Numbered from the stretch's first letter, positions 1 to 35,827 are shown. The stretch: 64,000 bases of DNA from Candidatus Gottesmanbacteria bacterium (GCA_963701185.1 OY969569.1:383054-447053), one strand, 5' to 3'. The notes: generated by a model from the letters alone, not told the origin. Numbers and translations: made by a program.

Positions 1-81
1 TCTCAAAGTCATCTTCGAAGTGGCGGAGGAATGGATCCGCTTCATCCGCACGAAAAAGGAAGAAATTGTATAGTCAGCTTT

Positions 82-20739: not shown

Positions 20740-21090
20740 ATGAGAGTAAAACGAGGTGTTCACGCAGGAGCAAAACATCATAAAATTCTGACAGCCAACA
20801 AAGGCTACAGGATGACCAGACGCCGCCTTATCCGTGTGGCAACGCAGGCGTACCTGCATGCGGGAGAATATGCCCATTCCGGACGAAAAAACCGCAAGCG
20901 CGATTTCCGGCAGCTCTGGATCACGAGAATCTCCGAAGCAACCAAGCAAAACGGCCTGTCCTACAGCGTATTCATGAGTAAACTGAAGGCCGCCAACATC
21001 GACATGGACCGGAAAATATTGGCAAATCTGGTCACCAATGATCCCGAAATATTCGAAGAAATCGTTGACAAAGTCAAAACGGTAAATTAA
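20740..21090 (+). CDS. rplT: ribosomal protein L20
   Basis: MRVKRGVHAGAKHHKILT... is the canonical L20 N-terminus. Confidence 0.9.
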   Translation: MRVKRGVHAGAKHHKILTANKGYRMTRRRLIRVATQAYLHAGEYAHSGRKNRKRDFRQLWITRISEATKQNGLSYSVFMSKLKAANIDMDRKILANLVTNDPEIFEEIVDKVKTVN

Positions 21091-21101
21091 AATATAAATC
21101 T

Positions 21102-21173
21102 ATGACAGCCCAAAGAATGTCAGTGAGTATGTTTTTTTGCCCCAAGCCGAACGGGGTATCTTTGGGTGCATAA
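21102..21173 (+). CDS. putative 23-codon leader peptide (MTAQRMSVSMFFCPKPNGVSLGA) upstream of pheST
   Basis: Small ORF ending inside a conserved element shared with the aro-operon leader. Contains an FF pair. Paralogous in length and ends to 26912..26983. Confidence 0.4.
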   Translation: MTAQRMSVSMFFCPKPNGVSLGA

Positions 21174-21222
21174 ATAACTAAAAATTTAACCCACGATCCC
21201 CCGCAAGGGGGATTTTTTGTGG
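21166..21222 (+). promoter_or_regulatory. conserved leader element plus intrinsic terminator (candidate Phe attenuator) upstream of pheS
   Basis: gcataaataacTaaaaatttaAcccacg..., then hairpin atccccc-gcaa-gggggat (21196-21212), then a T6 run. About 80% identical to 26975-27037. Confidence 0.5.
21196..21218 (+). terminator. rho-independent terminator (7-bp GC stem, GCAA loop, U6)
   Basis: atccccc gcaa gggggat tttttt, read directly. Confidence 0.7.
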
Positions 21223-21270
21223 AAGTATCTTGCGTGAATACAAGCTAAACCGTACAATGAAAGTGAGTCT

Positions 21271-22316: not shown

Positions 22317-24284
22317 ATGAACATACTCATACCTGATTCATGGCTCAGAGAATTTCTTAAAACAAAGGCAACTTCTCAACAGATAAAGGAGTATTTGTCC
22401 CTGTGTGGCCCGTCGGTCGAACGGCTTAGAAGACTGTCTTTGAACAAAGACAGTCTTCAAGGCGAAACAGTTTACGACATCGAAATCACAACCAACCGGC
22501 CCGACGCGATGTCTGTTTTTGGTGTCGCGCGCGAGGCGGCGGCGATTTTACCCCGGTTCGGGATTCCGGCAAAATTCGTCAATGACCCCTATGCCCTACA
22601 AGGACTCTCCTTGAAGGACGAGGAGAGTCCTTCTCGGAGCCTTAAACTTTTTATCAAAACCGACCCGAAGCTTAATCCCCGCTGGACATCTATTATTCTT
22701 TCGGATGTCCGCGTCGCGCCTTCGCCCCTCTGGCTCAAACAAAAACTGGAAGCAACCGGCATCCGCAGCATCAACAACGTGATTGACATCACGAATTATC
22801 TGATGCGCGCCTACGGCCAGCCGGCGCACGCGTTTGATTATGACGAAATTAAGGACTCAACAATGATCCTTCGTGAAAGTAAGAAGGGTGAAAAAATCGT
22901 CACCCTGGACGGAAAGACACACACCCTCGCAGGCGGCGACATCGTGATCGAAGACGGCGCCGGCAGACTCATTGACTTGTGCGGCATCATGGGCGCGCAA
23001 AACTCCAGCATTAAACCCGGAACGTCATCTGTTGTTCTTTTTACCCAAACGTACAATCCCGTCAATATCCGCAAAACCTCCATGGCACTGGCGGCGCGAA
23101 GCGAAGCGTCATCGCTTTTTGAAAAAGGACTCGATAGTGAACTGACACTACCTGCTTTAATCCGCGGAATAGAACTGATGGAAAAACTTACCGGCGCACA
23201 CGCTGCCAGTAAAATGTATGACATCTATCCCAAACCGTACAAACCATATTCAGTTACTGTCTCAAAAGAAAAAACGGCGGGCTATATGGGGACAGAACTC
23301 ACTGATACTGAAATAAAAAAAATACTGGTTCCGCTCGGATTCACGCCGTCTCTCACTAAAAAAGAGATTACCGTCACGGTCCCGAGCTACCGCACGGATG
23401 TGACACTGGACGTGGATGTGATTGAAGAAATCGCCCGGATATACGGATATCACAACATACAGACCACATTGCCGGAAGGCGAGCCGCCGATCGTCATACC
23501 TGATCCGCTCCTTGGATGGGAACACGAAATAAAAATACACCTGCGCGATTGGGGATTTACCGAACTCACTACCTACTCCATGATTTCCGAAAAACTCATG
23601 GGGATATTCGGCCTTGATACCAATAAAGCATATAAAATCACCAATCCGCTTTCGGAGGAATGGCTCTACATGCGGCCAACACTCCTCCCAAGCGCGCTTC
23701 TTGCCGTTGAACAGAACCTGCATTTCAGAAAGGATCTGCAATTATTTGAATTAAGTATGACGTATCAATGGCGTGAGCACGATTTGCCCAAAGAAAAACC
23801 GACACTGGTCGTTGCGTGGACCGGAAACAAACATCGCGAGGCCAAAGGAGTAGGAGAAGCTATCTGTTCGATCCTGGGTGAACGCAATTCGGGCTTCGTT
23901 GAAGAAGTTAAACCTGATCTTCTGTCAAAAATGAATATCCATACGCCGGTGACGACATTGACTCTCGATATTGCCGATCTTGTTACCCACGCAACACGGA
24001 ATAAAAAATATGTTCCGATTTCTAAATATCCTCCGATCGTCGAAGATTTATCGTTCATCGTTCCGCAGGGATTCCAGGTCGGTCCGCTTATTGACGTTCT
24101 GTCGCGGGTTCACAAACTTATCGAGTCCATCGTTTTCTTAGACGCCTATGAAAACAAACGGACGTTCCGTGTCACGTACAATGACCCGACAAAAAACCTG
24201 ACCGGCATGGATATCGCACCCATCCGTCAAAAACTCATCGAATACGCCGGAGAAAAATTCGGGGCCTCCGTGGTCACCGCTTAA
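22317..24284 (+). CDS. pheT: phenylalanyl-tRNA synthetase beta subunit (short form lacking N-terminal tRNA-binding domain)
   Basis: B3/4 and B5 domains, then an FDYDEI-containing core. 655 aa. Carries an in-frame REP hairpin at 22429-22458. Confidence 0.85.
   Translation: MNILIPDSWLREFLKTKATSQQIKEYLSLCGPSVERLRRLSLNKDSLQGETVYDIEITTNRPDAMSVFGVAREAAAILPRFGIPAKFVNDPYALQGLSLKDEESPSRSLKLFIKTDPKLNPRWTSIILSDVRVAPSPLWLKQKLEATGIRSINNVIDITNYLMRAYGQPAHAFDYDEIKDSTMILRESKKGEKIVTLDGKTHTLAGGDIVIEDGAGRLIDLCGIMGAQNSSIKPGTSSVVLFTQTYNPVNIRKTSMALAARSEASSLFEKGLDSELTLPALIRGIELMEKLTGAHAASKMYDIYPKPYKPYSVTVSKEKTAGYMGTELTDTEIKKILVPLGFTPSLTKKEITVTVPSYRTDVTLDVDVIEEIARIYGYHNIQTTLPEGEPPIVIPDPLLGWEHEIKIHLRDWGFTELTTYSMISEKLMGIFGLDTNKAYKITNPLSEEWLYMRPTLLPSALLAVEQNLHFRKDLQLFELSMTYQWREHDLPKEKPTLVVAWTGNKHREAKGVGEAICSILGERNSGFVEEVKPDLLSKMNIHTPVTTLTLDIADLVTHATRNKKYVPISKYPPIVEDLSFIVPQGFQVGPLIDVLSRVHKLIESIVFLDAYENKRTFRVTYNDPTKNLTGMDIAPIRQKLIEYAGEKFGASVVTA
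22429..22458. repeat. REP-like hairpin copy 3 (gaagactgtctttgaacaaagacagtcttc), in frame inside pheT
   Basis: 26/30 nt identical to copy 1. It encodes RLSLNKDSLQ in pheT without breaking the frame. Confidence 0.85.
22600..22632. repeat. 12-bp perfect inverted repeat (aaggactctcct ... aggagagtcctt) with 9-nt loop inside pheT
   Basis: Read directly. Shares the caagga/gagagtcct motif seen at 15498 and 55818. Confidence 0.6.
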
Positions 24285-26851
24285 GGGGTCGGCGTAGGAG
24301 CTACGTAATCCGCATTAATCCCTACATGTACATCGTTACTCGCGTGGTTTCCTTTGTTATCGACCACTTCCAGATGGATAATATGAGAGCCATTAGTCGG
24401 AATCGTAATTGTTTCATTGATATTTTTATCGTGCACGGTTTTGATAATGGATCCGTCAAGGCCAATTTCCACGCGGTCCAGATCATTGAGCGTTGATACC
24501 GTAACCTCGAGAGTAACGGAATTACTGTCCACCCGCGTCATGTCTTTGGGATTTTTGACATTCATACCGATGGAATCCGTTCCCTGATAAGTTTCCGTCG
24601 GCGGATGAAACTTCGAATCTCCCTGGCCGGCGACCCAGGCGTTAATGGCATCCTGCCAGCGGTTTTTGCCGTCTGTTGAAACCGGATCCTGTTCGGCAAA
24701 AACGACATACTGTTTCAGGTCATATTGGCCGTTGCCCACCTCAACCACATTTGCCAGTTTATTGTTATCATGCCGCGACACTTTGATATTTGCATAAATA
24801 TATGCCGGCCCGGTCGGTTCGGTGCCTTTAATAAATTTTTCGCGGCGGGTCGAATTCCCTGATACCGGCGTGCCGCCGCCATAGCTATCAATATCCATGT
24901 CGATAATCGTGGAAGGCCGGGTAAATGGTTCGTCCTTTTTGCCGGTGAGCGCCGCCTTTATAATTCTGTTCCAGATGGGAGCGGCACCGGTGACACCGGA
25001 GGCCAGCGCCTGATTCATCGGGGAATTGTCGTTATTGCCGACCCATGCTCCCACCACCATCGACGGCGTATAGCCGACCGTCCAATTATCCCGTTTATCA
25101 TCCGTCGTGCCGGTTTTTACTGCCACACTAAATCCGGGAATCGTCAGGTATGAACTGGGGCCGAACGTATCTTTGCGCGCACCGTTATCGGACAATATAT
25201 CGGAAATCAAATAGGAAACGTCTGCCGCAAGCACCCGCTGCGGAGCCGGCGGATTGTATTGGTAAATCACTTTGCCGTTCCTATCTTCAACCTTCAGAAT
25301 GGAAACGGGTGCGGCCTTCATACCTGACGTCGCAAACACGCCGTAGGCGCTGGTGAGATCCAAAAGCGTCACCTCGCCGCCCCCCAGGGTCATGGATAAC
25401 CCTAACCGCTTGAGATTGTCATTGGTCGGGGCCAACGACGAGATGCCCATATCATTGGCAGTGGCCAGCACGTCTTTGACCCCTGTCAGCGCGCTCACTT
25501 TGACGGCGATCGTGTTTATGGAATTGCCCAGGGCAAACCGGAGCTGCATGGGGCCGCGGAATTTGCCGTCATAATTTTTGGGGTTATACTCGGGTTTGGC
25601 AGGGTCACCGGAGGGGTATTTGGTATCCACATCCATAAGGAGAGTTGCCGCCGTATATCCTTTTTTAAACGCCGTTGCGTACGTAAAGGGCTTGATGGAC
25701 GAGCCCGGTTGACGCAAGCCCTGGGTGACGACGTTGAATTTATAGCCGCTGGAGTCCGTCGCCGAGTAGTCTTTGCTCCCGACCATTGATAAAACTTCCC
25801 CGGTCTTCGGGTCAATGACGACCGCCGCACCGTTTGAGACTTTCAAATATTTTGCTTTATCCACTTCCTCTTTGACAATCGCTTGTGCTTTTTGCTGAAG
25901 GCGCCAGTCCAGGGTTGTTGTCACTTTCAGTCCGCCCCCGTCAACGGTTCCCGCCCCGAATTTTGCGACCAACTGTTCTTTAACGTACGCGACGAAATGA
26001 GGCGCACGCAGCCCCTCGGTATCCGTGGCAAAATGAATACTATCCAAAAGCTTTCGTGCATCCGCTTCCTGCGTTGGGGTAATATATCCGTCCTCCCGCA
26101 TGCGCGTGAGGACGTGCTGAGTCCGGGCTACGTAGGCTTTCGGCGCCCCAAAAAAGGGCGAGTAATCATTAGGGTCCTGCGGGAGTCCTGCCAAAACGGC
26201 GCATTGAACTAAATTCAAATCTTTCACCGACGTTCCGAAATACAATTGCGAAGCGGATTCCATGCCGGCAGTCGTACCGCCGTAGGGTGCTTCATTAAGA
26301 TACATCTGGAGAATCTGTTCTTTGGAATATTTCTGTTCTATCTGGATGGCAAGAATTGCCTCTTTGATTTTGCGCGGCACGGTCCGTTCATTCGTCAAAA
26401 GCACGGTTTTCACCAGCTGCTGGGTTAGCGTGGATCCCCCCTGCAGACTCCGGGAAAAAAGGTTGGACAGAAGCGCACGGATAATACCCGACGTGGAGAG
26501 TCCCGGGTGCTTGTAAAACTCCTTATCTTCGATCGCGATTGTAGCCTCCCGGCAGTATTTGGGAATATCGTCAAAGGAAACCGGAATACGGTTGGCGTCC
26601 TGATAAATGTCATACAGGCTTTCGCCGCTGCGGTCCAGAATCACCGTGGATAAGCCGGTCGTCCGCTGCACCTTATCCGGACGGGGCAAATCCTTGGCAT
26701 ACCAGGCAAATAATACGACGGTAAACAGCACCGCGGCAACAACAACGAAAAATCCGACGACCGCCAGGGTCGTGGTGAACTGGAGATTATTTCGGGTCAT
26801 TCCGAAGCGGCGTCTAAATTGCCTTCGTTGAAAAAGGTCATACATGGACAT
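24281..26851 (-). CDS. class A penicillin-binding protein (PBP1A-type transglycosylase/transpeptidase)
   Basis: GT51 motif IAIEDKEFYKHPG. Transpeptidase motifs SSIK, SGN-like and KTGTT. N-terminal TM. Start set at Met 26851; the ORF extension to 27067 would overlap the aro leader region. Confidence 0.85.
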   Translation of the reverse strand: MSMYDLFQRRQFRRRFGMTRNNLQFTTTLAVVGFFVVVAAVLFTVVLFAWYAKDLPRPDKVQRTTGLSTVILDRSGESLYDIYQDANRIPVSFDDIPKYCREATIAIEDKEFYKHPGLSTSGIIRALLSNLFSRSLQGGSTLTQQLVKTVLLTNERTVPRKIKEAILAIQIEQKYSKEQILQMYLNEAPYGGTTAGMESASQLYFGTSVKDLNLVQCAVLAGLPQDPNDYSPFFGAPKAYVARTQHVLTRMREDGYITPTQEADARKLLDSIHFATDTEGLRAPHFVAYVKEQLVAKFGAGTVDGGGLKVTTTLDWRLQQKAQAIVKEEVDKAKYLKVSNGAAVVIDPKTGEVLSMVGSKDYSATDSSGYKFNVVTQGLRQPGSSIKPFTYATAFKKGYTAATLLMDVDTKYPSGDPAKPEYNPKNYDGKFRGPMQLRFALGNSINTIAVKVSALTGVKDVLATANDMGISSLAPTNDNLKRLGLSMTLGGGEVTLLDLTSAYGVFATSGMKAAPVSILKVEDRNGKVIYQYNPPAPQRVLAADVSYLISDILSDNGARKDTFGPSSYLTIPGFSVAVKTGTTDDKRDNWTVGYTPSMVVGAWVGNNDNSPMNQALASGVTGAAPIWNRIIKAALTGKKDEPFTRPSTIIDMDIDSYGGGTPVSGNSTRREKFIKGTEPTGPAYIYANIKVSRHDNNKLANVVEVGNGQYDLKQYVVFAEQDPVSTDGKNRWQDAINAWVAGQGDSKFHPPTETYQGTDSIGMNVKNPKDMTRVDSNSVTLEVTVSTLNDLDRVEIGLDGSIIKTVHDKNINETITIPTNGSHIIHLEVVDNKGNHASNDVHVGINADYVAPTPTP

Positions 26852-26871
26852 ATTGCTATTGTAGCGGATTT

Positions 26872-26900
26872 TTGCAAAAATTGACAACACGTGATATACT
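26872..26900 (+). promoter_or_regulatory. candidate promoter TTGCAA-17-TATACT upstream of aro leader ORF
   Basis: ttgcaa at 26872-26877, tatact at 26895-26900. An alternative pairing is TTGACA at 26881 with CATACT at 26902. Confidence 0.35.
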
Positions 26901-26911
26901 CCATACTGTTT

Positions 26912-26983
26912 ATGAATAGCCAACGCAACCAAAATTTCTTTTATTATTTTACTCCAGTCCTTGGAGGGGATTGCGTGGCATAA
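26912..26983 (+). CDS. putative 23-codon aromatic-rich leader peptide (MNSQRNQNFFYYFTPVLGGDCVA) upstream of the aro operon
   Basis: FFYYF codon cluster. The ORF stops inside the conserved element. Same length (23 codons) and similar ends to the pheST leader. Confidence 0.5.
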   Translation: MNSQRNQNFFYYFTPVLGGDCVA

Positions 26984-27037
26984 ATAACAAAAATTTATAA
27001 CACCACGGAACCCCGCCAAGGCGGGGTTTTTTTGTGG
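26975..27037 (+). promoter_or_regulatory. conserved leader element plus intrinsic terminator (candidate Phe/Tyr attenuator) upstream of DAHP synthase
   Basis: gcataaataacAaaaatttaTaacaccacgg..., then hairpin ccccgcc-aa-ggcgggg, then a T7 run. The upstream segment ggggattgcgtgg (inside the leader codons) can pair with ccacggaacccc to give an anti-terminator. Confidence 0.5.
27011..27033 (+). terminator. rho-independent terminator (ccccgcc aa ggcgggg + U7)
   Basis: Read directly. Located 20 nt before the ATG of 27053. Confidence 0.7.
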
Positions 27038-27052
27038 TGAAAAAACGTACCT

Positions 27053-28006
27053 ATGACTATTGAACAACGAAATTTCGATCTTGAAATATTTGCCGGACCA
27101 TGTTCTATCAACCGTGAGAATATCCGTGATATTTACGCTATCGCGGACATCCAGGTGAAGTCTCAGCGTGGGGAGCTCCAGCGCGCCATAGCCGGTACGC
27201 GGATCGTGGGCCTTAAATCCCGAACTGCGCTTTCACCGAATCCGGAAGATATGGGCATCGATTACCCGACCATTGAGGAACAGGTTCTCATCGTGGGGCG
27301 GGCAGTATTGGAACAAACACCTCCGAGCATCACCATATCGGCGCAGGTTGTGGCGGATACTGATCTGGCGGTTGCAACAGAAGTGATGATGCCGGAAATA
27401 CAAATACCGCATTATGTCGGAAAAATTCCACCGGGGAAGCTGCTTTTATGGAATCCATCGGTGGATCAATTAGGGTGGCACATCCTCCAGACATCGAGTC
27501 TGGCTGCCAAAAACGGGTGGAGGGTGGGAATCAAAAACGGCAAAACGCTGGGGAGTACACTTACCGATGCGAAAGATGAGACGCGGCAGACGCCGGTAGA
27601 ACTGGAACGTACATGGGCGGGACTTGCGGCATTCGCCAAAGGCATGGACGGAAGACTCGTTTTCATCCACCGCGGGGTAGAAGACCCGCAAAAAGGTGAA
27701 TGGCGAAGCGCTCTGGTTCACGAAGTTGCACGGCGCGTAAAACGCAGTGTTCCTTCCGCGAAGCTCTTTTTTGACCCAAGCCACAGTTGCGGACCGAAGC
27801 TTCGTGATCAAATCGTGCCGGTAACAATTGATGCGATGCGGATGCGGGACGGAAGCGGCTTTCTCTATGACGGAATTTTAATCGAAACCGGTCATTCAAC
27901 GACGGATACAAAACAACATATTACTATTGATGAGTTGCGATGTCTGGTTGAGGAGCTGTCGCGATTTCGGGTGTTGAAAATTCCAACGAAAGGCGGACGG
28001 ATATGA
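27053..28006 (+). CDS. 3-deoxy-7-phosphoheptulonate (DAHP) synthase, type I-beta (KDO8PS-like fold)
   Basis: FAGPCSIN (xAGPCSxE motif) and KLFFDPSHSCG (DPSHxxG motif). First gene of an aromatic biosynthesis operon. Confidence 0.7.
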   Translation: MTIEQRNFDLEIFAGPCSINRENIRDIYAIADIQVKSQRGELQRAIAGTRIVGLKSRTALSPNPEDMGIDYPTIEEQVLIVGRAVLEQTPPSITISAQVVADTDLAVATEVMMPEIQIPHYVGKIPPGKLLLWNPSVDQLGWHILQTSSLAAKNGWRVGIKNGKTLGSTLTDAKDETRQTPVELERTWAGLAAFAKGMDGRLVFIHRGVEDPQKGEWRSALVHEVARRVKRSVPSAKLFFDPSHSCGPKLRDQIVPVTIDAMRMRDGSGFLYDGILIETGHSTTDTKQHITIDELRCLVEELSRFRVLKIPTKGGRI

Positions 28007-28863
28007 ACCCTCCGATAGCCACTCCTGAGTCTATCGCTTCCATCGGGCATATCGGCTCGTACAGTTTTGCCGCCGCCCAATGGGCCGCGCCAAAAGCCGT
28101 GGTGAAATTCTTCCCTGCTTTTGCGGATGTGTGCGCTGCCGTTACACGCGGCGATTGCACGCTGGGAGTGCTTCCGATAGAAAATTCACTTACCGGCAGC
28201 ATCCATGAAAACTATGATCTGTTAAAACAACAGAAACTCCATATTGTAGGAGAAGTATGTTTAAACATAACACATGCATTGCTGGTTACACCTGGTGGTT
28301 GCGCCAACGACGACGAGAGGTTGAGGGGTGTCCGAACGATTTTTTCGCACCCGCAAGCGTTATTACAATGCGGCGTGTTTTTAAAAAAACACCCGCACCT
28401 CCAGACTATCGCCTTAGCCGATACTGCAACTGCGGCGGCACGAATCGCACGTTTGAGAAAATCCTCCGAAGCGGCCATTGCCGGTAAATCGACAGGGGAA
28501 CTCCTCGGACTTCGGGCACTGAAAATGAATGTTGCAGATCACCCATGCAATATAACGCGTTTTGTCGTCATTGCCAAACAGAAAAGAATAGATAAAGAAG
28601 CTGATAAAGCCTCTGTCATTCTGCAGCTTCCGCACGTACCCGGAAGTTTATCGCGGGTACTCCGGTGTTTTGCCGAACGAAAGTTAAACCTAACCAAAAT
28701 AGAATCCCGCCCGATCATCGGTACTCCCTGGGAGTATACATTCTACGTGGATGTCGAAATTGGGCGGAACATCAGAAATTTTATGCAGTCACTAGAGGAC
28801 ATACGCCTGGTAGCGCACAAAATACTCATATTAGGCCTGTATAAGAAAGGAGAAACGATATGA
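28003..28863 (+). CDS. pheA: prephenate dehydratase with C-terminal ACT domain
   Basis: LPIENSLTGSI, the TKIESRP (ESRP) motif, and an ACT regulatory domain. Confidence 0.85.
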   Translation: MNPPIATPESIASIGHIGSYSFAAAQWAAPKAVVKFFPAFADVCAAVTRGDCTLGVLPIENSLTGSIHENYDLLKQQKLHIVGEVCLNITHALLVTPGGCANDDERLRGVRTIFSHPQALLQCGVFLKKHPHLQTIALADTATAAARIARLRKSSEAAIAGKSTGELLGLRALKMNVADHPCNITRFVVIAKQKRIDKEADKASVILQLPHVPGSLSRVLRCFAERKLNLTKIESRPIIGTPWEYTFYVDVEIGRNIRNFMQSLEDIRLVAHKILILGLYKKGETI

Positions 28864-29141
28864 ACAGTATACCAAGTAAGTTATTACGTTTACGCCGGCA
28901 AATAGACGATGCGGATCACCATATATTGCATCTGTTGGCGAAACGCCAAAACCTATCCCGTGCAGTCGTACGGCAAAAAAAACTTCACGGGCTGGCTATT
29001 ACGCACAGAGTCCGTGAACGGCAAATCATGGAAAACAGACAAACAGTCGGCCGATCTTTGGGGCTTGATTCAATGCTGGTCCGGCGATTATTCGCCCTGA
29101 TTATACAAGAGTCAAAACGAATACAAAAAGAACATATATGA
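28860..29141 (+). CDS. chorismate mutase (AroQ class, monofunctional)
   Basis: 93-aa helical protein. LRRQIDDADHHILHLLAKR is typical of CM_2. Confidence 0.7.
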   Translation: MNSIPSKLLRLRRQIDDADHHILHLLAKRQNLSRAVVRQKKLHGLAITHRVRERQIMENRQTVGRSLGLDSMLVRRLFALIIQESKRIQKEHI

Positions 29142-30004
29142 ACATGCGTATACGCACCATAGGAATTATCGGATTGGGTCTTATCGGGACCTCTCTCGGC
29201 ATGGCTCTCAAAAGAACTGACAGGACGATGAAAATCATCGGTTTGACCAAATCGGAAAAAAGCGGAAGAACGGCAATACAAATGGGCGCGATTGACCGTT
29301 TGGCTCACACTGTTACGGAACTACTCAACGGCACAGATATGCTCATCCTGGCAACGCCTATACGCGTCACGATGACGCTTTTGCCGCATATCGGAAGGCT
29401 CGCCCAAAAACCTATTCTTATAACGGATACCGGCAGTACAAAAGTTGAAATTTGCGCAATCGCAAAAAAACTTCCCGCACACGTGACATTTATCGGTGGA
29501 CATCCGATGGCAGGGAAAGAAACAAGCGGTCCGGAACATGCGGATGCCGGCCTATTCGTTGACCGGCCATGGATCCTCACATCCGACAATACAGAAGACA
29601 ATACCCTCACGGGTATTGAATCTATCGTCAGCGCGGCGGGTGCCGTACCCATCCGGATGACGGCGGCTGATCACGACCGGCTGATTGCGTCGATATCACA
29701 TCTTCCGCTGGTTATTTCTTCCCTTCTTATGGAAACGGCGGCGGGGCACCCATCCTGGCCCGCCCTACGACGTTTAGCGGGAAACGGTTTTCGCGATACG
29801 ACCCGGCTTGCCGCAGGAAACCCGGCTATGCATACGGATATCCTCCGAACAAATAAGAAAAATATTTTATCTGCCATACTGCAGTTTGAACATGCACTGG
29901 AAACGCTCAAAACCGATATCGCTTCAGACCGCTGGCTGGCAATAAATGAAAGACTTCAGGCGGTGCAACAGGCGCGTGTTTCATGGGGAAGGAGTCAGCT
30001 ATGA
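29138..30004 (+). CDS. tyrA: prephenate/arogenate dehydrogenase
   Basis: Rossmann motif IGIIGLGLIGTSLG. PDH C-terminal domain. Confidence 0.8.
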   Translation: MNMRIRTIGIIGLGLIGTSLGMALKRTDRTMKIIGLTKSEKSGRTAIQMGAIDRLAHTVTELLNGTDMLILATPIRVTMTLLPHIGRLAQKPILITDTGSTKVEICAIAKKLPAHVTFIGGHPMAGKETSGPEHADAGLFVDRPWILTSDNTEDNTLTGIESIVSAAGAVPIRMTAADHDRLIASISHLPLVISSLLMETAAGHPSWPALRRLAGNGFRDTTRLAAGNPAMHTDILRTNKKNILSAILQFEHALETLKTDIASDRWLAINERLQAVQQARVSWGRSQL

Positions 30005-31113
30005 AGATGAATTCATTTTGGCATCATGCGGCAGCTCACCCGCCCGCTACATACATTCCAAATCAAGGCGTCATTGTCCGTCATAATTTTGCTGCCCTGG
30101 AAAACGATTTTGGTAGCAGTCCGGTCATCGACAAAGCGATTCGGACATTACGGAATGCGCAACTGAATCACTACCCGGATCGCAATGCCGTCACTCTGAA
30201 AACAAAAATTGCGTCATGGCTGGATCTCACGCCCGACATGGTGGAGCTGGGCAACGGCAGCGATGAACTCATCTCGCTTATTGCTCAGATTGCCGTTGAA
30301 CCCGGAAAATCCGTCATTGTTCAGACGCCGACATTCTTTCGGATCATTGAGGCAGTGAACAAAATGAAGGGGGCCGTCGTCCCGGTGGCCGCTCAAAAAG
30401 ATAGCGGCTTTGCTCTTGACGAACAATTTGTCGACGGTCTTATGACGGCCGCCAAAAAAAACCGCGCCGCCCTTATATGGCTGTGTACGCCCAATAACCC
30501 GACCGGAGCAGTTATGAATTCGGCCTCTATCGACCGGATAGCTGGCAGTACAAAGGCGTTTGTTGTTGTCGATGAGGCATACCAGGAACTTTGGGATCCG
30601 GAAAATAAAAAATCGGCGGTGAGGCTCATACCAAAACATGACAACCTTATCGTCACGAAAACGTTCTCCAAGGCGTTCGGTTTGGCAGCAATCCGCGTCG
30701 GCGTGATGCTGGGAAATCCGAAGCTTATATCAGCGGTGGACGCTTGGAGGCTGAATTTTCCTTTATCGTCCATATCACTGCGGATTGCAGAGGCGGCGCT
30801 GTCAGATACTGATCATCTGATCCGAATACGCAATAAGGTTTCGCGTGAACGGAATATGCTTTTTCGCCATATAGCAAAGCTGCCGATGCTGGAACTGGGA
30901 GCCGAATCAAAAACAAACGTATTTCTTTTGCGTCACAAAACAGACGACCTGCATGCATTGCTTTTAAAACAAGGCATGATGACCGCCGATTTTAACCGAA
31001 TGAACGGCCTGGAACATATGCGTTTTGTACGCATTACGGTGAAACGCCGGAAAGAAAATCTTATGTTAATGAAAGCGCTTACGGCATCGTGCGGAAAGGA
31101 AACATCTTTATGA
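30001..31113 (+). CDS. hisC: histidinol-phosphate/aromatic aminotransferase (HisC family, class II)
   Basis: PLP lysine motif KTFSKAFGLAAIRVG. Its ATGA overlaps tyrA. Context suggests an aromatic aminotransferase role. Confidence 0.75.
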   Translation: MKMNSFWHHAAAHPPATYIPNQGVIVRHNFAALENDFGSSPVIDKAIRTLRNAQLNHYPDRNAVTLKTKIASWLDLTPDMVELGNGSDELISLIAQIAVEPGKSVIVQTPTFFRIIEAVNKMKGAVVPVAAQKDSGFALDEQFVDGLMTAAKKNRAALIWLCTPNNPTGAVMNSASIDRIAGSTKAFVVVDEAYQELWDPENKKSAVRLIPKHDNLIVTKTFSKAFGLAAIRVGVMLGNPKLISAVDAWRLNFPLSSISLRIAEAALSDTDHLIRIRNKVSRERNMLFRHIAKLPMLELGAESKTNVFLLRHKTDDLHALLLKQGMMTADFNRMNGLEHMRFVRITVKRRKENLMLMKALTASCGKETSL

Positions 31114-31733
31114 AAGCTGAATTCATTATTTTCCGACATGGCGAAACCGACTGGAATCGGCAACACCGGTCTATGGGAACAACAGACATTCCTTTAAATG
31201 CGACAGGGAAACAACAGGCAGAGAGACTGGCAGTGCGGCTGGCGCAAGAACACATTAGCGCATGTTACACGTCACCGCTTGCCCGCGCGAAAGAAACCAT
31301 GTGTTTAGTAGCGAGGTACCATCATCTCCCCGTTTGGATACTTGAGGATCTCAGGGAAATGGACCTTGGCCAGTTTGAGGGGAAATTGAAAGCAGAGCGA
31401 ACACTATTATTCCCCGGGTTTGACCCCGGCAACGATGAACATAGGGAGCTCTTACACATGGACACATTTTCCCTTTGGATACCGAGGTTAAAAAATGAAA
31501 TCGTAGCCGGATTATTACAAAGACATGATGGGCAGACAATCGCCATTTCGACGCATGATCAAAAAATGCGTGCACTGCTCATCGCTCTCGGTATGCCGGA
31601 GGAAACCAAGCGGACAGTTTTAAAAAACAGTGCGGTGACGAAAGTTTCTCTGGAAAACGACGCGATGACGGTTATGTATCACAATGATACTTCTCACTTG
31701 GAGAATATAAACATTGAGAAACAAACACTATGA
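31110..31733 (+). CDS. histidine phosphatase (phosphoglycerate mutase family) protein
   Basis: FIIFRHGETDWN is the RHG catalytic motif. Its ATGA overlaps hisC. Confidence 0.7.
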   Translation: MKAEFIIFRHGETDWNRQHRSMGTTDIPLNATGKQQAERLAVRLAQEHISACYTSPLARAKETMCLVARYHHLPVWILEDLREMDLGQFEGKLKAERTLLFPGFDPGNDEHRELLHMDTFSLWIPRLKNEIVAGLLQRHDGQTIAISTHDQKMRALLIALGMPEETKRTVLKNSAVTKVSLENDAMTVMYHNDTSHLENINIEKQTL

Positions 31734-33520
31734 ACATTATTACCTTACAACCATTACCCAAGCCTGTCCGGACTACCGTCTCCGTGCCGGGTTCCAAAAG
31801 CATGACGAACCGTGCACTTGTGATCGCGGCTCTTACGCACGGCACCGTGGTTATTCACCATCCGCTCGTTTCCGATGACACACATGCCATGACATCATGT
31901 TTGTCTGCACTTGGAATTCCAGTCGAAAAAAAGAAAGACAAATGGATTGTGAGCGGAGGGTTGAATCAAGTTACATCGCTAACAAGGACTCTGCCTGCGC
32001 GGCTTTCGGGAACAACCATTCGTTTTTTGACAGCACTCGCCTGTATCGTACCAGGGGTTACCACCCTTTCGGGTGAACCGGGTCTCAACGCGCGGCCAAT
32101 TAGGGAACTGGTTTCGGCATTGCAAAAACGTGGTGCCGGCATCGAGTATCTGCGAAAAACCGGGTTTCCGCCGATTCGCGTCCGGCAGTCACAAATAAAA
32201 TCCGGGGTTATTACTATTTCAGGAACGACAAGCAGTCAGTTTATTTCAGCACTCCTGATGATACTTCCGATGCTTGAGCGATCAACGGTTTCCGTGAGGG
32301 GAAAAACGGTTTCCCGTTCATACATAGATATGACGATTGCACTCATGGCTGCGTGCGGCGTAGCTGTTTGCGAAACCAAACCCAATCATTTTGAAATATT
32401 GCACGGATGCTATACATGCAGGGATATAGAAATAGAAAGCGATGTTTCCAGCGCGTGTTATGTTGCGGCAATCGCAGCACTCACGCAGTCGACGATAACC
32501 ATACGGGGGATGCGTGCCGGCTCAGTCCAGCCGGATATGCAGTTTCTTTCAATTCTTTCTAAAATGGGAAGCCGTGTGTTATGGAAAAGCGATGCGATGA
32601 CCATTCAGGGTAAGGGTGTACGTCCGTTGTCCGTCGACATGAGCGCCTGCCCGGACCAGATACAAACACTTGCGGTGCTGGCGGCTTTTGCCCAGGGGAA
32701 CACCATCATCGAAGGCATTGGAACTTTGCGTGTCAAAGAAACAAACCGCGTTCGTGCATTGCAGACGGAATTAGCGCGGATGGGGATACGAACATCGGCC
32801 ACGAAAAACGTGCTAACGATTTTTGGCGGCCGGCCGCAGCCGGCACGTATACGTACGCACGGCGACCATCGGATGGCCATGGCCTTCGCGGTTGCCGGTG
32901 CAAAAATATCGGGAATGCAGATAGAAAATCCGGACGTCGTCAATAAAACATTTCCGGAGTTCTGGATGTGTATGCGCGATATCGGCATAACGATGGAAAA
33001 ACCGTCAAACATCGTCCTTATCGGATTTATGGGTTCCGGCAAAAGCAGTGTCGCTCCACGTCTTTCTCGGGCGCTCGGTTGGAAAGTCGTTGATATGGAT
33101 GCGCTCGTGCTGTTACGATCAAAACGGGCTTCAATTCAGGAAATTTTTGCTAAAGACGGGGAAAAAGCCTTCCGCCGTCTTGAAGAAACCGTTGCACAAT
33201 CACTGGTGTTAAAAAGTCATCAGGTTATTGCCGCGGGAGGCGGAGTTGTTATGAACGAAAAAACTTTGATGCATTTACAAAATAATGCGACTATCATTTT
33301 TCTAAAAACGTCATTGCCGGTGATAAAAGCACGCTTACGTATTGCAATGGATCGCCCGCTGTGGAACGATAAGCGGAAAGCACGCGACTTATTTATCACT
33401 CGCGCTCCGCTCTATCGTAAAAGCGCAGATATAACAATCACTACCGACAACAAATCCCTATCGGCCATAACGGCAGAAATTATTTTAGAAACAATTTTTC
33501 GTACGATAGAAAGGAAATAA
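31730..33520 (+). CDS. aroA: bifunctional EPSP synthase / shikimate kinase fusion
   Basis: N-terminal [17 protein letters not shown] (EPSPS) through about aa 425. C-terminal P-loop [11 protein letters not shown]...VVDMD (AroK). Confidence 0.85.
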
Positions 33521-33522
33521 CT

Positions 33523-34608
33523 ATGGCAGGAAATACATTTGGGCAACTATTTCGCATTACAACCTTCGGGGAATCCCATGGAGGCGCTGTCGGCGTGGTT
33601 ATCGACGGGTGCCCGCCCGGTCTTGCCATATCCGAAGCTGACATTCAAAAAGAACTGGACCGCCGCAAGCCCGGGCAAAGCCACATTACGTCGCCGCGCA
33701 AAGAAGCGGATATCATCCATATACTTTCGGGTATGTTCGGCGGGAAAACTACCGGAATGCCGATTCTTATGCTGGCATACAACAAGGATGCCAAACCAGA
33801 AGATTATGAATGTATCAAAGACGTGTACCGGCCGGGGCATGCGGACTTCACATTCCATAAAAAGTACGGTATTCGGGACTGGCGGGGATCAGGACGGGCT
33901 TCCGCGCGGGAAACGCTCGGGCGGGTCGCTGCGGGCGCTCTTGCAAAGAAGTTCCTTAAGGAAAAACTCTGTATAGAAATACTAAGCTTCGTGGAACAGA
34001 TTGCTGATATAAAAACAGCGATTGATTTCAACACGGTGACACCTGCGGCAATCGAATCCAACGTCGTCCGCTGTCCCGATCCGTTTGTCGCGGAAAAAAT
34101 GATTGCGCATATTGAATCCGTCCGTAAGGCAGGAGATTCTGTCGGAGGAATCATCCGCGGCGTGATCAAAAATGTGCCCGAGGGTCTCGGAGAACCGGTG
34201 TTTGACAAATTGCCGGCCGATTTGGGAAAAGCCATGTTAAGTATCAATGCGGTCAAAGGATTCGAAATAGGATCCGGCTTTGCGGGAGCCGCACGTTCCG
34301 GCAGCAAGCATAACGATGAGTTTTTCAAGGACACAAACGGAGATATCAGAACCAAAACAAATAATGCAGGAGGAACGCTGGGCGGCATATCCAACGGTGA
34401 AACGATCTATTTCCGTGTGGCTTTTAAACCGGTTTCAACGATCCGTAAAAAACAGCATACGGTCAATACACATGGGGAAACGGTCGAACTGGAGGCTGCC
34501 GGCAGACATGATCCGTGCGTCCTGCCGCGGGCGGTTCCCATCGTGGATGCTATGGCTGCATTAGTTCTGATGGATCATTATCTGCGGGATAAAGCTCAGT
34601 ATGCCTGA
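33523..34608 (+). CDS. aroC: chorismate synthase
   Basis: [25 protein letters not shown] is the AroC N-terminus. Confidence 0.9.
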
Positions 34609-34639
34609 TGGAATAAAAATATGCTATAGTGGAGGAAAT

Positions 34640-35827
34640 ATGGATCCCATTGATGAATTATTAACCAGGGGTGTCGAAAATATCATCCCGAACAAGGAAA
34701 AGCTGCGGGCGCGGTTGGCGAGCGGCAAAAAGCTCAATATATATCTCGGGATTGATCCGACGGCCACCAATATCCACATCGGGCACGCGGTGCCGCTTCG
34801 GAAACTCAACGCGTTTGCGAGCTTGGGCCACAACGTGACATTTCTCATCGGCGATTTTACCGCACTCATCGGGGATACCTCGGATAAAGACGCCGAACGC
34901 CCTGTCCTCACGGATGATCAAATCAGAGCAAACTTTGAAACATACAAGGCCCAAGCGGCAAAAGTACTGGATTTTTCTAAAATCAACGTTCGGTTTAATA
35001 GCGAGTGGCTCAAGGATTTACAATTTGCCGATATCGTAAAACTGTGCCAGCATTTTTCCGCCGGAGATTTCGTCGGGCGGGAACTTATTAAAAAACGTCT
35101 CGCTGAAGGCAAAAAGGTGGGACTGCACGAACTTCTCTACCCGGTGATGCAGGGCTATGACAGCTGGTTTATGAATACGGATATCCAACTCGGCGGCACG
35201 GATCAGACGTTTAATATGCAGGCGGGCAGGACGCTCCAAAAAGACTTGCGCAAAAAAGAATCGTTTATCATCGCCAACGGGTTCCTGGAGGGAACCGACG
35301 GACGTAAAATGAGTAAAACCTGGAACAACGCGATATGGCTGACGGACAACCCAAATGAAATGTTTGCGAAAGTCATGTCCCTGCGGGATGAACTCATCGT
35401 GCAGTATTTTACGCTCGCGACCAACGCGACTATGGAAGAAATCGGGTCGGTTGAAAAACGCCTGACGGCAAAAGAAAACCCGATGACCATCAAAATCGAG
35501 CTGGCGCACCGGATGGTGACGGAACTTCACATGAAAGCCGCCGCCGACGCCGCGCAAAAAGACTTCGGCAGTAGATTCCAAAAAGGAGAACTCACCCAGG
35601 CAAAACTCCCGACAATCGCATTAACACCAACATTAGCTTCTGGGGCGACAATTATCGAGGCAATGATAGCAGGAAGTATTATCTCCAGTAAATCTGAGGG
35701 GAGACGATTAGTCGAACAAAAAGCCGTAAAACGCAACAATATACTTGTCACAATACCATCAGAGTTACTCAAGTTTAAGACAGGTGATATAATAAAAGCT
35801 GGAAGGAAAGCAATAAAAATTAAATAA
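34640..35827 (+). CDS. tyrS: tyrosyl-tRNA synthetase
   Basis: GIDPTATNIHIGHAVP (HIGH), KMSKT, and a C-terminal S4 domain. ATG at 34640 with a ggagga RBS. Confidence 0.85.
   Translation: MDPIDELLTRGVENIIPNKEKLRARLASGKKLNIYLGIDPTATNIHIGHAVPLRKLNAFASLGHNVTFLIGDFTALIGDTSDKDAERPVLTDDQIRANFETYKAQAAKVLDFSKINVRFNSEWLKDLQFADIVKLCQHFSAGDFVGRELIKKRLAEGKKVGLHELLYPVMQGYDSWFMNTDIQLGGTDQTFNMQAGRTLQKDLRKKESFIIANGFLEGTDGRKMSKTWNNAIWLTDNPNEMFAKVMSLRDELIVQYFTLATNATMEEIGSVEKRLTAKENPMTIKIELAHRMVTELHMKAAADAAQKDFGSRFQKGELTQAKLPTIALTPTLASGATIIEAMIAGSIISSKSEGRRLVEQKAVKRNNILVTIPSELLKFKTGDIIKAGRKAIKIK

Follow-up and report, generated by a model that had tools for sequence, protein, structure and literature searches.

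A candidate ribosome-mediated attenuator with Phe and Tyr codons upstream of an aromatic amino acid operon in Candidatus Gottesmanbacteria

Attenuators of the trp, pheA, and pheST type work by a known mechanism, and the candidate element described here, found upstream of an aromatic amino acid operon in a 64,000-nucleotide stretch of Candidatus Gottesmanbacteria DNA (GCA_963701185.1 OY969569.1:383054-447053; hereafter the window, meaning the whole stretch that was analyzed), follows identical logic. We regard aroR-aroF of C. glutamicum (Actinobacteria) as the closest precedent, by a purely functional resemblance. A Phe-Tyr-Phe leader peptide there precedes an operon that starts with the DAHPS gene aroF (Neshat et al. 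2014, J Biotechnol 190:55; PMC11802643), and transcription rises as ribosomes stall under Phe limitation (PMC11802643). By comparison, the aromatic run of the window is longer (FFYYF, with 5-7 codons in relatives), its operon adds pheA, tyrA, aroA-aroK, aroC, and tyrS, and its putative DAHPS belongs to a divergent family.

The E. coli pheL-pheA and pheM-pheST leaders (Rfam Phe_leader, RF01859) share with the element of the window a layout of four regions (1 to 4), leader peptides rich in Phe, and a terminator of the intrinsic type. The E. coli leaders, however, have a Shine-Dalgarno (SD) sequence, whereas leaders of the window type have none and start 6-12 nt after a -10 box, and the aro leader of the window differs further in mixing Phe and Tyr codons. 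Against Rfam, the element scored 27.9 bits for Phe_leader (gathering threshold 55) and 26 bits for Leu_leader (RF00512; gathering threshold 50), and it is therefore an analogue, not a member, of these families; at gathering thresholds Rfam returned only four tRNAs over the window, and no T-box or riboswitch match was obtained in 26840-27070 even at E values up to 10. Mycobacteria use leaderless poly-Cys short-ORF attenuators in which the regulatory ORF comes first on the transcript (bioRxiv 10.1101/834739). There, clustered codons of one amino acid control downstream operon genes, as the aromatic run is proposed to do here, but the mycobacterial ORFs sense Cys and the window has a canonical terminator/antiterminator pair. 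A literature search on attenuation and leader peptides in Patescibacteria, the candidate phyla radiation, and Microgenomates, covering part of the journals, returned nothing relevant, and a paper on complete Microgenomates genomes (PMC7143001) refers to leader peptides solely with regard to bacteriocin peptidases. The mechanism is thus known, and the lineage is one for which we found no report of such attenuators, which apparently have not been described there.

The element lies in a 201-nt gap between the minus-strand PBP1A gene (24281-26851) and the start of a plus-strand operon at 27053. This is the divergent position upstream of a DAHP synthase gene that an earlier reading made from the sequence alone had assigned to it; the 23-codon ORF with five consecutive Phe/Tyr codons reported in that sequence-only reading is present, and the promoter proposed just 5' of the ORF was recovered by a consensus scan. 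The features of the locus are as follows.

26858-26887, minus strand: PBP1A promoter, back to back with the leader promoter (TTGTCA 26887-82, TACAAT 26863-58; PBP1A ATG 6 nt further)
26872-26900, plus strand: predicted leader promoter (-35 TTGCAA 26872-77, 17-nt spacer, extended -10 TGaTATACT 26892-26900; consensus scan)
26912-26983, plus strand: leader ORF, ATG 26912 to TAA 26981-26983, 23 codons plus stop, MNSQRNQNFFYYFTPVLGGDCVA
26919-26930, plus strand: region 1, the 5' strand of the 1:2 anti-antiterminator helix, paired with 26968-26979 in minimum-free-energy (MFE) folds
26936-26950, plus strand: candidate regulatory codons TTC TTT TAT TAT TTT (F F Y Y F), where a ribosome short of Phe-tRNA or Tyr-tRNA is proposed to stall
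26952-26966, plus strand: small internal hairpin CUCCA-GUCCU-UGGAG (26952-56 with 26962-66), whose 3' half, with the following GGGG, is reused as antiterminator 5' arm
26959-26985 (5' arm) with 26993-27021 (3' arm), plus strand: antiterminator hairpin, 23 bp, imperfect, -28.2 kcal/mol, in the fold without the terminator 3' arm
26967-26979, plus strand: region 2, pairing with region 1 or, alternatively, with region 3
27001-27039, plus strand: intrinsic terminator, core CCCCGC 27011-16, CAAG loop, and GCGGGG 27021-26, with a GAA/UUU extension and U7 at 27027-33, -27 kcal/mol
27001-27007 with 27033-27039, plus strand: outer clamp of the terminator, CACCACG, pairing across the U tract
27053-28006, plus strand: first gene of the operon, DAHPS-like, 317 aa
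27053-35827, plus strand: nine-gene aro/pheA/tyrA/tyrS operon (Pfam)

The leader unit on the plus strand and PBP1A's own promoter on the minus strand together account for the whole of the gap. GTG codons at 27034 and 27037, past the U tract, were considered as alternative gene starts and rejected, since neither shares the reading frame of the ATG at 27053. The aromatic-codon run alone is not rare: runs of at least five such codons occur four times in the window over its six frames, and at least one arose in 46 of 100 Markov simulations; the significance lies in the whole architecture and in its conservation.

Transcription is predicted to start at about 26907, which would leave a 5' UTR of only 4-5 nt, and no SD sequence was found in any leader unit, either in the window or in relatives. 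Nearly all relatives carry a TTGACA-17-TAtAAT promoter that ends 6-12 nt before the leader ATG, and in many of them this gap is 6-7 nt, a spacing at which the AUG would be at +1. We consider leaderless or near-leaderless translation of the leader ORF most likely, from a start site predicted by promoter spacing; the window mRNA is not strictly leaderless by its predicted start, with the -10 box ending 11 nt before the AUG. Elsewhere in the window, -10 boxes end 6-7 nt before start codons that have no SD at 1601, 5903, 6773, 16100, 36054, 46644, and 55224 and, on the minus strand, at 26851 and 1339. Internal operon genes of the window have AGGAG-type SDs, unlike many first-in-operon genes, and the genome appears, from these start regions, to lean heavily on leaderless mRNAs. 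The ATGs at 27053 and 21271, which open the first genes after each of the two attenuators of the window, have neither a recognizable SD nor a leaderless start, and the spacers that follow the attenuators (27034-27052 and 21223-21270) are A-rich.

Closer inspection of the leader RNA shows two mutually exclusive folds. The full leader has an MFE of -46.9 kcal/mol (z = -4.9 against shuffles, 0/200) and folds as two domains, a 5' domain in which regions 1 and 2 pair around the small hairpin and the terminator. The terminator had been drawn in the sequence-only reading as ccccgcc-aa-ggcgggg followed by U7; the scan found both terminator and U7, while the 2-nt aa loop is sterically impossible and is replaced by a CAAG loop. 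That reading had also proposed a pairing of 26966-78 with 27003-14, which is present but forms only the middle of the longer, 23-bp antiterminator (26959-85/26993-27021); the 1:2 anti-antiterminator hairpin is an addition to the earlier scheme. The antiterminator engages the terminator's 5' arm and loop in full and holds the UAA at 26981-83 in its apical stem. When region 1 is masked, the antiterminator (-28 to -29 kcal/mol) and the terminator state (-30.8 kcal/mol) are nearly isoenergetic, so the outcome would be decided by whichever forms first. Footprint-constrained MFE folding kept the terminator in every case, and the model therefore rests on co-transcriptional kinetics, as classical attenuators do; we approximated this kinetic decision by folding the transcript before the terminator 3' arm exists. 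A CCAC...GUGG clamp across the U tract is seen at 27001-27007/27033-27039, at 21191-94/21219-22, and at many loci in relatives, where a 'TTTTTGTGG' or 'TTTTTATGG' tail is also common 3' of these terminators. The clamp or tail could stabilize the terminator, compete with the region 2 GUGG, or act otherwise.

To assess conservation, 80 species-level homologous loci were fetched, with counts given over 82 loci, and a rule-based scan was run for an ATG-initiated ORF no longer than 45 aa, with four or more F/Y/W codons in six, followed by a terminator. The scan placed an attenuator unit 5' of the homologous DAHPS-like gene, in some cases in tandem, at no fewer than 60 of 82 loci, mostly in Microgenomates-type Patescibacteria and also in two Elusimicrobia; it detected no unit at the remaining 22 of the 82. 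Over the 575 kb scanned, 71 units lay on the strand of the gene, all upstream of it, against three dissimilar hits on the opposite strand. A covariance model based on seven members of a single subfamily returned, at E<0.01, 62 plus-strand matches against one minus-strand match, and it matched the unit of the window at 26912-27035 (36 bits, E=9e-5) as well as that of Elusimicrobium posterum. The same leader thus recurs 5' of aro genes in related genomes with helices that co-vary, and what had been called unexpected for a reduced genome is instead a widespread family in Microgenomates-type Patescibacteria.

Individual relatives show how the unit drifts. In L001, whose first gene is 86% identical, the leader reads MNHNGNQYFFYYFAPNLGGVVVVDDR, the terminator is identical, and the 1:2 helix is altered on both strands with complementarity retained. 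L002 (67% identity) carries one unit 5' of a prephenate dehydratase gene and another 5' of the DAHPS-like gene; their terminator stem differs (CCUCCCG/GGGAGG), and the upstream G-rich strand is altered to match. Across the family the only conserved peptide feature is the aromatic run of 5-7 F/Y/W codons, which varies among TTY, TAY, and TGG while its phase with the conserved ATG and stop is kept; in some relatives the stop codon follows 2-3 codons past the run. Two leader-plus-terminator units in series, or tandem aromatic attenuators, are seen at L002, L006, L007, L013, L016, L070, and L076. In some second tandem units the ATG lies just past the first terminator, and the G-rich 3' arm of that terminator could act as an SD. 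A Trp codon lies within the Phe/Tyr run at L008, L009, L021, L023, L024, L026, L030, L034, L041, L044, L047, and L051 (for example SWFYFFFYF and FWFYFYF), and lineages with such leaders may sense all three aromatic amino acids. Beyond Patescibacteria, the unit is present at L018 2779-2950 (chromosome of Elusimicrobium posterum Dip510) and at L035. The L018 unit comprises TTGACA-17-TACAAT, 7 nt, ATG...MQKNLNKNFSFYFYFLMATPLG, and an imperfect terminator with U7, the gene downstream is a homologue 46% identical to the DAHPS-like gene of the window, and gene and leader may have been transferred as one piece.

We used these units to examine whether the alternative helices co-vary. For the terminated-state structure (1:2 helix, inner hairpin, and terminator), 90.2% of cells were paired against 66.6% in shuffles, all 20 of 20 pairs had changes on both sides, and the covariation score was 0.39 against 0.12 in shuffles (0/500) and 0.02-0.06 in slid controls, all on a covariance-model alignment that is fitted to the tested structure and so inflates these figures. 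On the same model-fitted alignment, the terminator helix was 94% paired with compensatory changes in 8 of 8 pairs (85 aligned matches), and 7 of 7 modelled pairs of the 1:2 helix were altered on both sides. The inner hairpin had 5 of 5 pairs altered on both sides, for a helix modelled from the seed subfamily and with the window row in a different register. When antiterminator pairs were counted in a fixed register, 64.2% were paired against 60.0% (2/500 shuffles), a marginal excess that nonetheless lay above every slide; this column-based count is weakened because the register differs between subfamilies. A MAFFT alignment of 35 units submitted to RNAalifold predicted no pairs, since the helices are out of register in that alignment, and we therefore relied on an alignment-free duplex test together with the covariance-model alignment. 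In the duplex test, the segment after the aromatic run bound the terminator 5' region of its own unit more strongly than foreign partners (-20.8 against -15.5 kcal/mol), and in 44 of 46 units the own partner outperformed the median foreign one (p=1.5e-11). Among representatives with distinct terminator arms, the own partner exceeded the median foreign one in 15 of 15 and was the single best in 6 of 15. Permutation tests gave 0/5000 for the 2:3 pairing and 0/5000 for the 1:2 pairing, with a weak 1:3 control.

The spacing of these elements was likewise consistent with translational control. Over 46 units, the antiterminator 5' arm spans a median +8 to +27 nt past the last aromatic codon and the stop falls at +30, while a median 86% of the terminator 5'-arm bases are engaged by the antiterminator; in the window the arm spans +8 to +29 and the stop is again at +30. 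A ribosome covers about 12-15 nt on either side of its A site. With footprints of this size, the spacing fits a ribosome that, on the aromatic codons, would cover region 1 and leave the antiterminator arm free and that, at the stop codon, would cover the 3' half of that arm.

The window holds a second, paralogous unit on the plus strand, between rplT and pheS, with the following features.

21065-21222, plus strand: paralogous attenuator (TTGACA 21065-70, TAAAAT 21088-93, then 8 nt and the ORF)
21102-21173, plus strand: pheS leader ORF, MTAQRMSVSMFFCPKPNGVSLGA, with only two Phe codons (21132-37)
21191-21222, plus strand: terminator of the pheS leader; 1:2 hairpin and fold as in the aro leader

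The pheS and aro leaders share the motif GCATAAATAACnAAAAATTTA..CCACG, and its recurrence at 21165-21195 bears out the earlier observation that the ORF before the aro operon ends inside a conserved element. This second unit takes the place that pheM has in E. coli, and the order infC-rpmI-rplT-leader-pheST is common to the two organisms. Phe-rich leaders such as MNSKNFFAFFFFSSPQRVSLGA were found 5' of pheS in 22-24 of 80 metagenomic related loci, and the opposite strand at the pheS loci of relatives yielded none. Phe makes up 89% of the aromatic residues in the pheS leaders of relatives, compared with 61% Phe, 34% Tyr, and 5% Trp in their aro leaders. This tracking of codon content with the regulated genes argues for translation-based sensing and would be hard to explain otherwise. 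The closest pheS relatives (L083, L084, and L111, at 85-89% PheS identity, set against L085-L119) have no leader and carry only an rplT terminator and a TACAAT promoter, and several pheS loci have extra ORFs between leader and pheS; the patchy occurrence of the pheS leader suggests recent gain, loss, or rearrangement.

The operon downstream of the aro leader encodes, by Pfam, the DAHPS-like protein followed by prephenate dehydratase with an ACT domain, chorismate mutase, prephenate dehydrogenase, and a class I/II aminotransferase (genes 2-5, plus strand), then a His_Phos_1 phosphatase, an EPSP synthase-shikimate kinase fusion, chorismate synthase, and TyrRS (genes 6-9, plus strand). Pfam recognized no aroB, aroD/aroQ, or aroE in 27053-35827, and the middle of the shikimate pathway is therefore not encoded there. 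The U tract ends 19 nt before the operon ATG, and no promoter-like site was reported in this interval by the consensus scan, which is weak evidence of absence; expression of the operon would thus have to pass through the terminator.

The assignment of the first gene as a DAHP synthase in the sequence-only reading stands by fold and is not supported by curated sequence models, which do not recognize this divergent family. The 317-aa protein scored 19.6 bits for Pfam DAHP_synth_1 (curated threshold 25.5) and had no NCBIfam match and, by single sequence, no PDB match. A profile of its family weakly matches DAHPS structures (E ~0.002), and the best structural matches of its AlphaFold (AF2) model (pLDDT 94) are type I-beta DAH7PS (E 3e-14 to 4e-11, target-normalised TM-score up to 0.73, 16-19% identity), with KDO8P synthases ranking next. 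Given this predicted fold, "DAHP synthase" is a reasonable name for the family. Its invariant residues include C17, H244, E278, and D285, possibly the ligands of a Cys/His/Glu/Asp metal site. Judged by homologues, the genome belongs to the Microgenomates-type Patescibacteria, and the relatives that carry a name are Gottesman-, Levy-, and Roizmanbacteria.

Taken together, the alternative folds, their geometry, conservation at 60 or more of the 82 loci, covariation, and codon specificity support, in silico, the proposal that the leader is a ribosome-mediated attenuator, and we consider it highly probable that it couples a Phe/Tyr operon ending in tyrS to the availability of charged tRNA-Phe and tRNA-Tyr. 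Transcription would start some 4-5 nt before the AUG at 26912 and the leader would be translated without an SD. With Phe and Tyr plentiful, the ribosome would reach the UAA at 26981-83 and cover the antiterminator 5' arm, upon which the terminator at 27001-27039 would form and RNA polymerase would stop at U7. Were Phe-tRNA or Tyr-tRNA scarce, the ribosome would stall on the FFYYF codons (26936-50) and mask region 1, leaving 26959-85 free to pair with the emerging 26993-27021; this pairing would pre-empt the terminator and the polymerase would enter the operon. If the leader were not translated, region 1 (26919-30) would pair with region 2 (26968-79) and the terminator would form by default.

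We weighed this proposal against three other explanations of the same sequence. Terminator and antiterminator alternatives do not by themselves name the selector, and the aromatic run is U-rich, so that the run might be an RNA motif within an attenuator sensed by a protein, a T-box-like tRNA interaction, or a metabolite instead of a ribosome. Such a sensor would have to account for a run that keeps its codon phase and varies only among TTY, TAY, and TGG, of which TGG breaks the U-rich pattern yet retains the amino acid class, for a Phe-only or Phe-plus-Tyr content that follows the regulated genes, and for an ATG whose distance from the -10 box stays within 6-12 nt; the RNA also matches no T-box or riboswitch family, its best sub-threshold Rfam matches being Phe_leader and Leu_leader. 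We consider a selector of this kind very unlikely.

Smaller still is the probability we attach to the unit at about 26907-27033 being an independent gene for a trans-acting small RNA, with the ORF incidental and the aro operon transcribed from elsewhere. The unit is indeed self-contained (a promoter, about 125 nt, and a terminator), and trans-acting small RNAs derived from attenuators exist, rnTrpL being an example (PMC6614838). However, the unit lies 5' of aro genes and points the same way as they do without exception (71 against 3), its in-frame ATG, aromatic run, and stop are kept while the nucleotide sequence drifts, and the 19 nt between U tract and operon ATG held no promoter-like site that the scan reported; a trans role of the terminated product would, moreover, add to attenuation and not replace it. 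That a small ORF with an aromatic core is conserved would also be expected of a functional hydrophobic micropeptide for which the hairpin is merely a terminator, but at the peptide level conservation is confined to the aromatic run, some relatives stop 2-3 codons after it, and the tail is kept where its GGN codons supply the G-rich strand of the antiterminator, with changes that track those of the terminator arm. The operon would then also have no promoter of its own by the consensus scan, and we find a micropeptide scarcely credible.

If ribosome-mediated attenuation is the correct reading, its mechanism is a textbook one, and the gain lies in distribution and variation and not in principle. 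The roughly 70 natural variants of the terminator/antiterminator switch provide material for studies of attenuator evolution, and Elusimicrobium posterum Dip510, which has a complete chromosome and a strain designation, may be available for experiments. The regulation would also lend independent support to the poorly recognizable 317-aa family being the DAHP synthase of the pathway, and attenuation would be linked here to a predicted leaderless translation. We tentatively extend this, as a possibility that we think somewhat doubtful, to the suggestion that Microgenomates-type Patescibacteria and some Elusimicrobia use leaderless leader peptides without an SD as a general amino acid sensor, in which the ribosome would initiate on the 5'-terminal AUG as it emerges, locked to RNA polymerase; the module would have been copied to pheST, to aro operons ending in tyrS, and into tandem arrays and would have travelled with the divergent DAHPS gene between phyla. 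A sensor of this kind, if real, would suit genomes that are poor in transcription factors. Patescibacteria (candidate phyla radiation) have ultra-small genomes that are commonly regarded as poor in regulation and auxotrophic; the present findings indicate that these genomes bear the sequence hallmarks of classical control by ribosome sensing, which would act on an aromatic amino acid pathway and on the genes of two tRNA synthetases.
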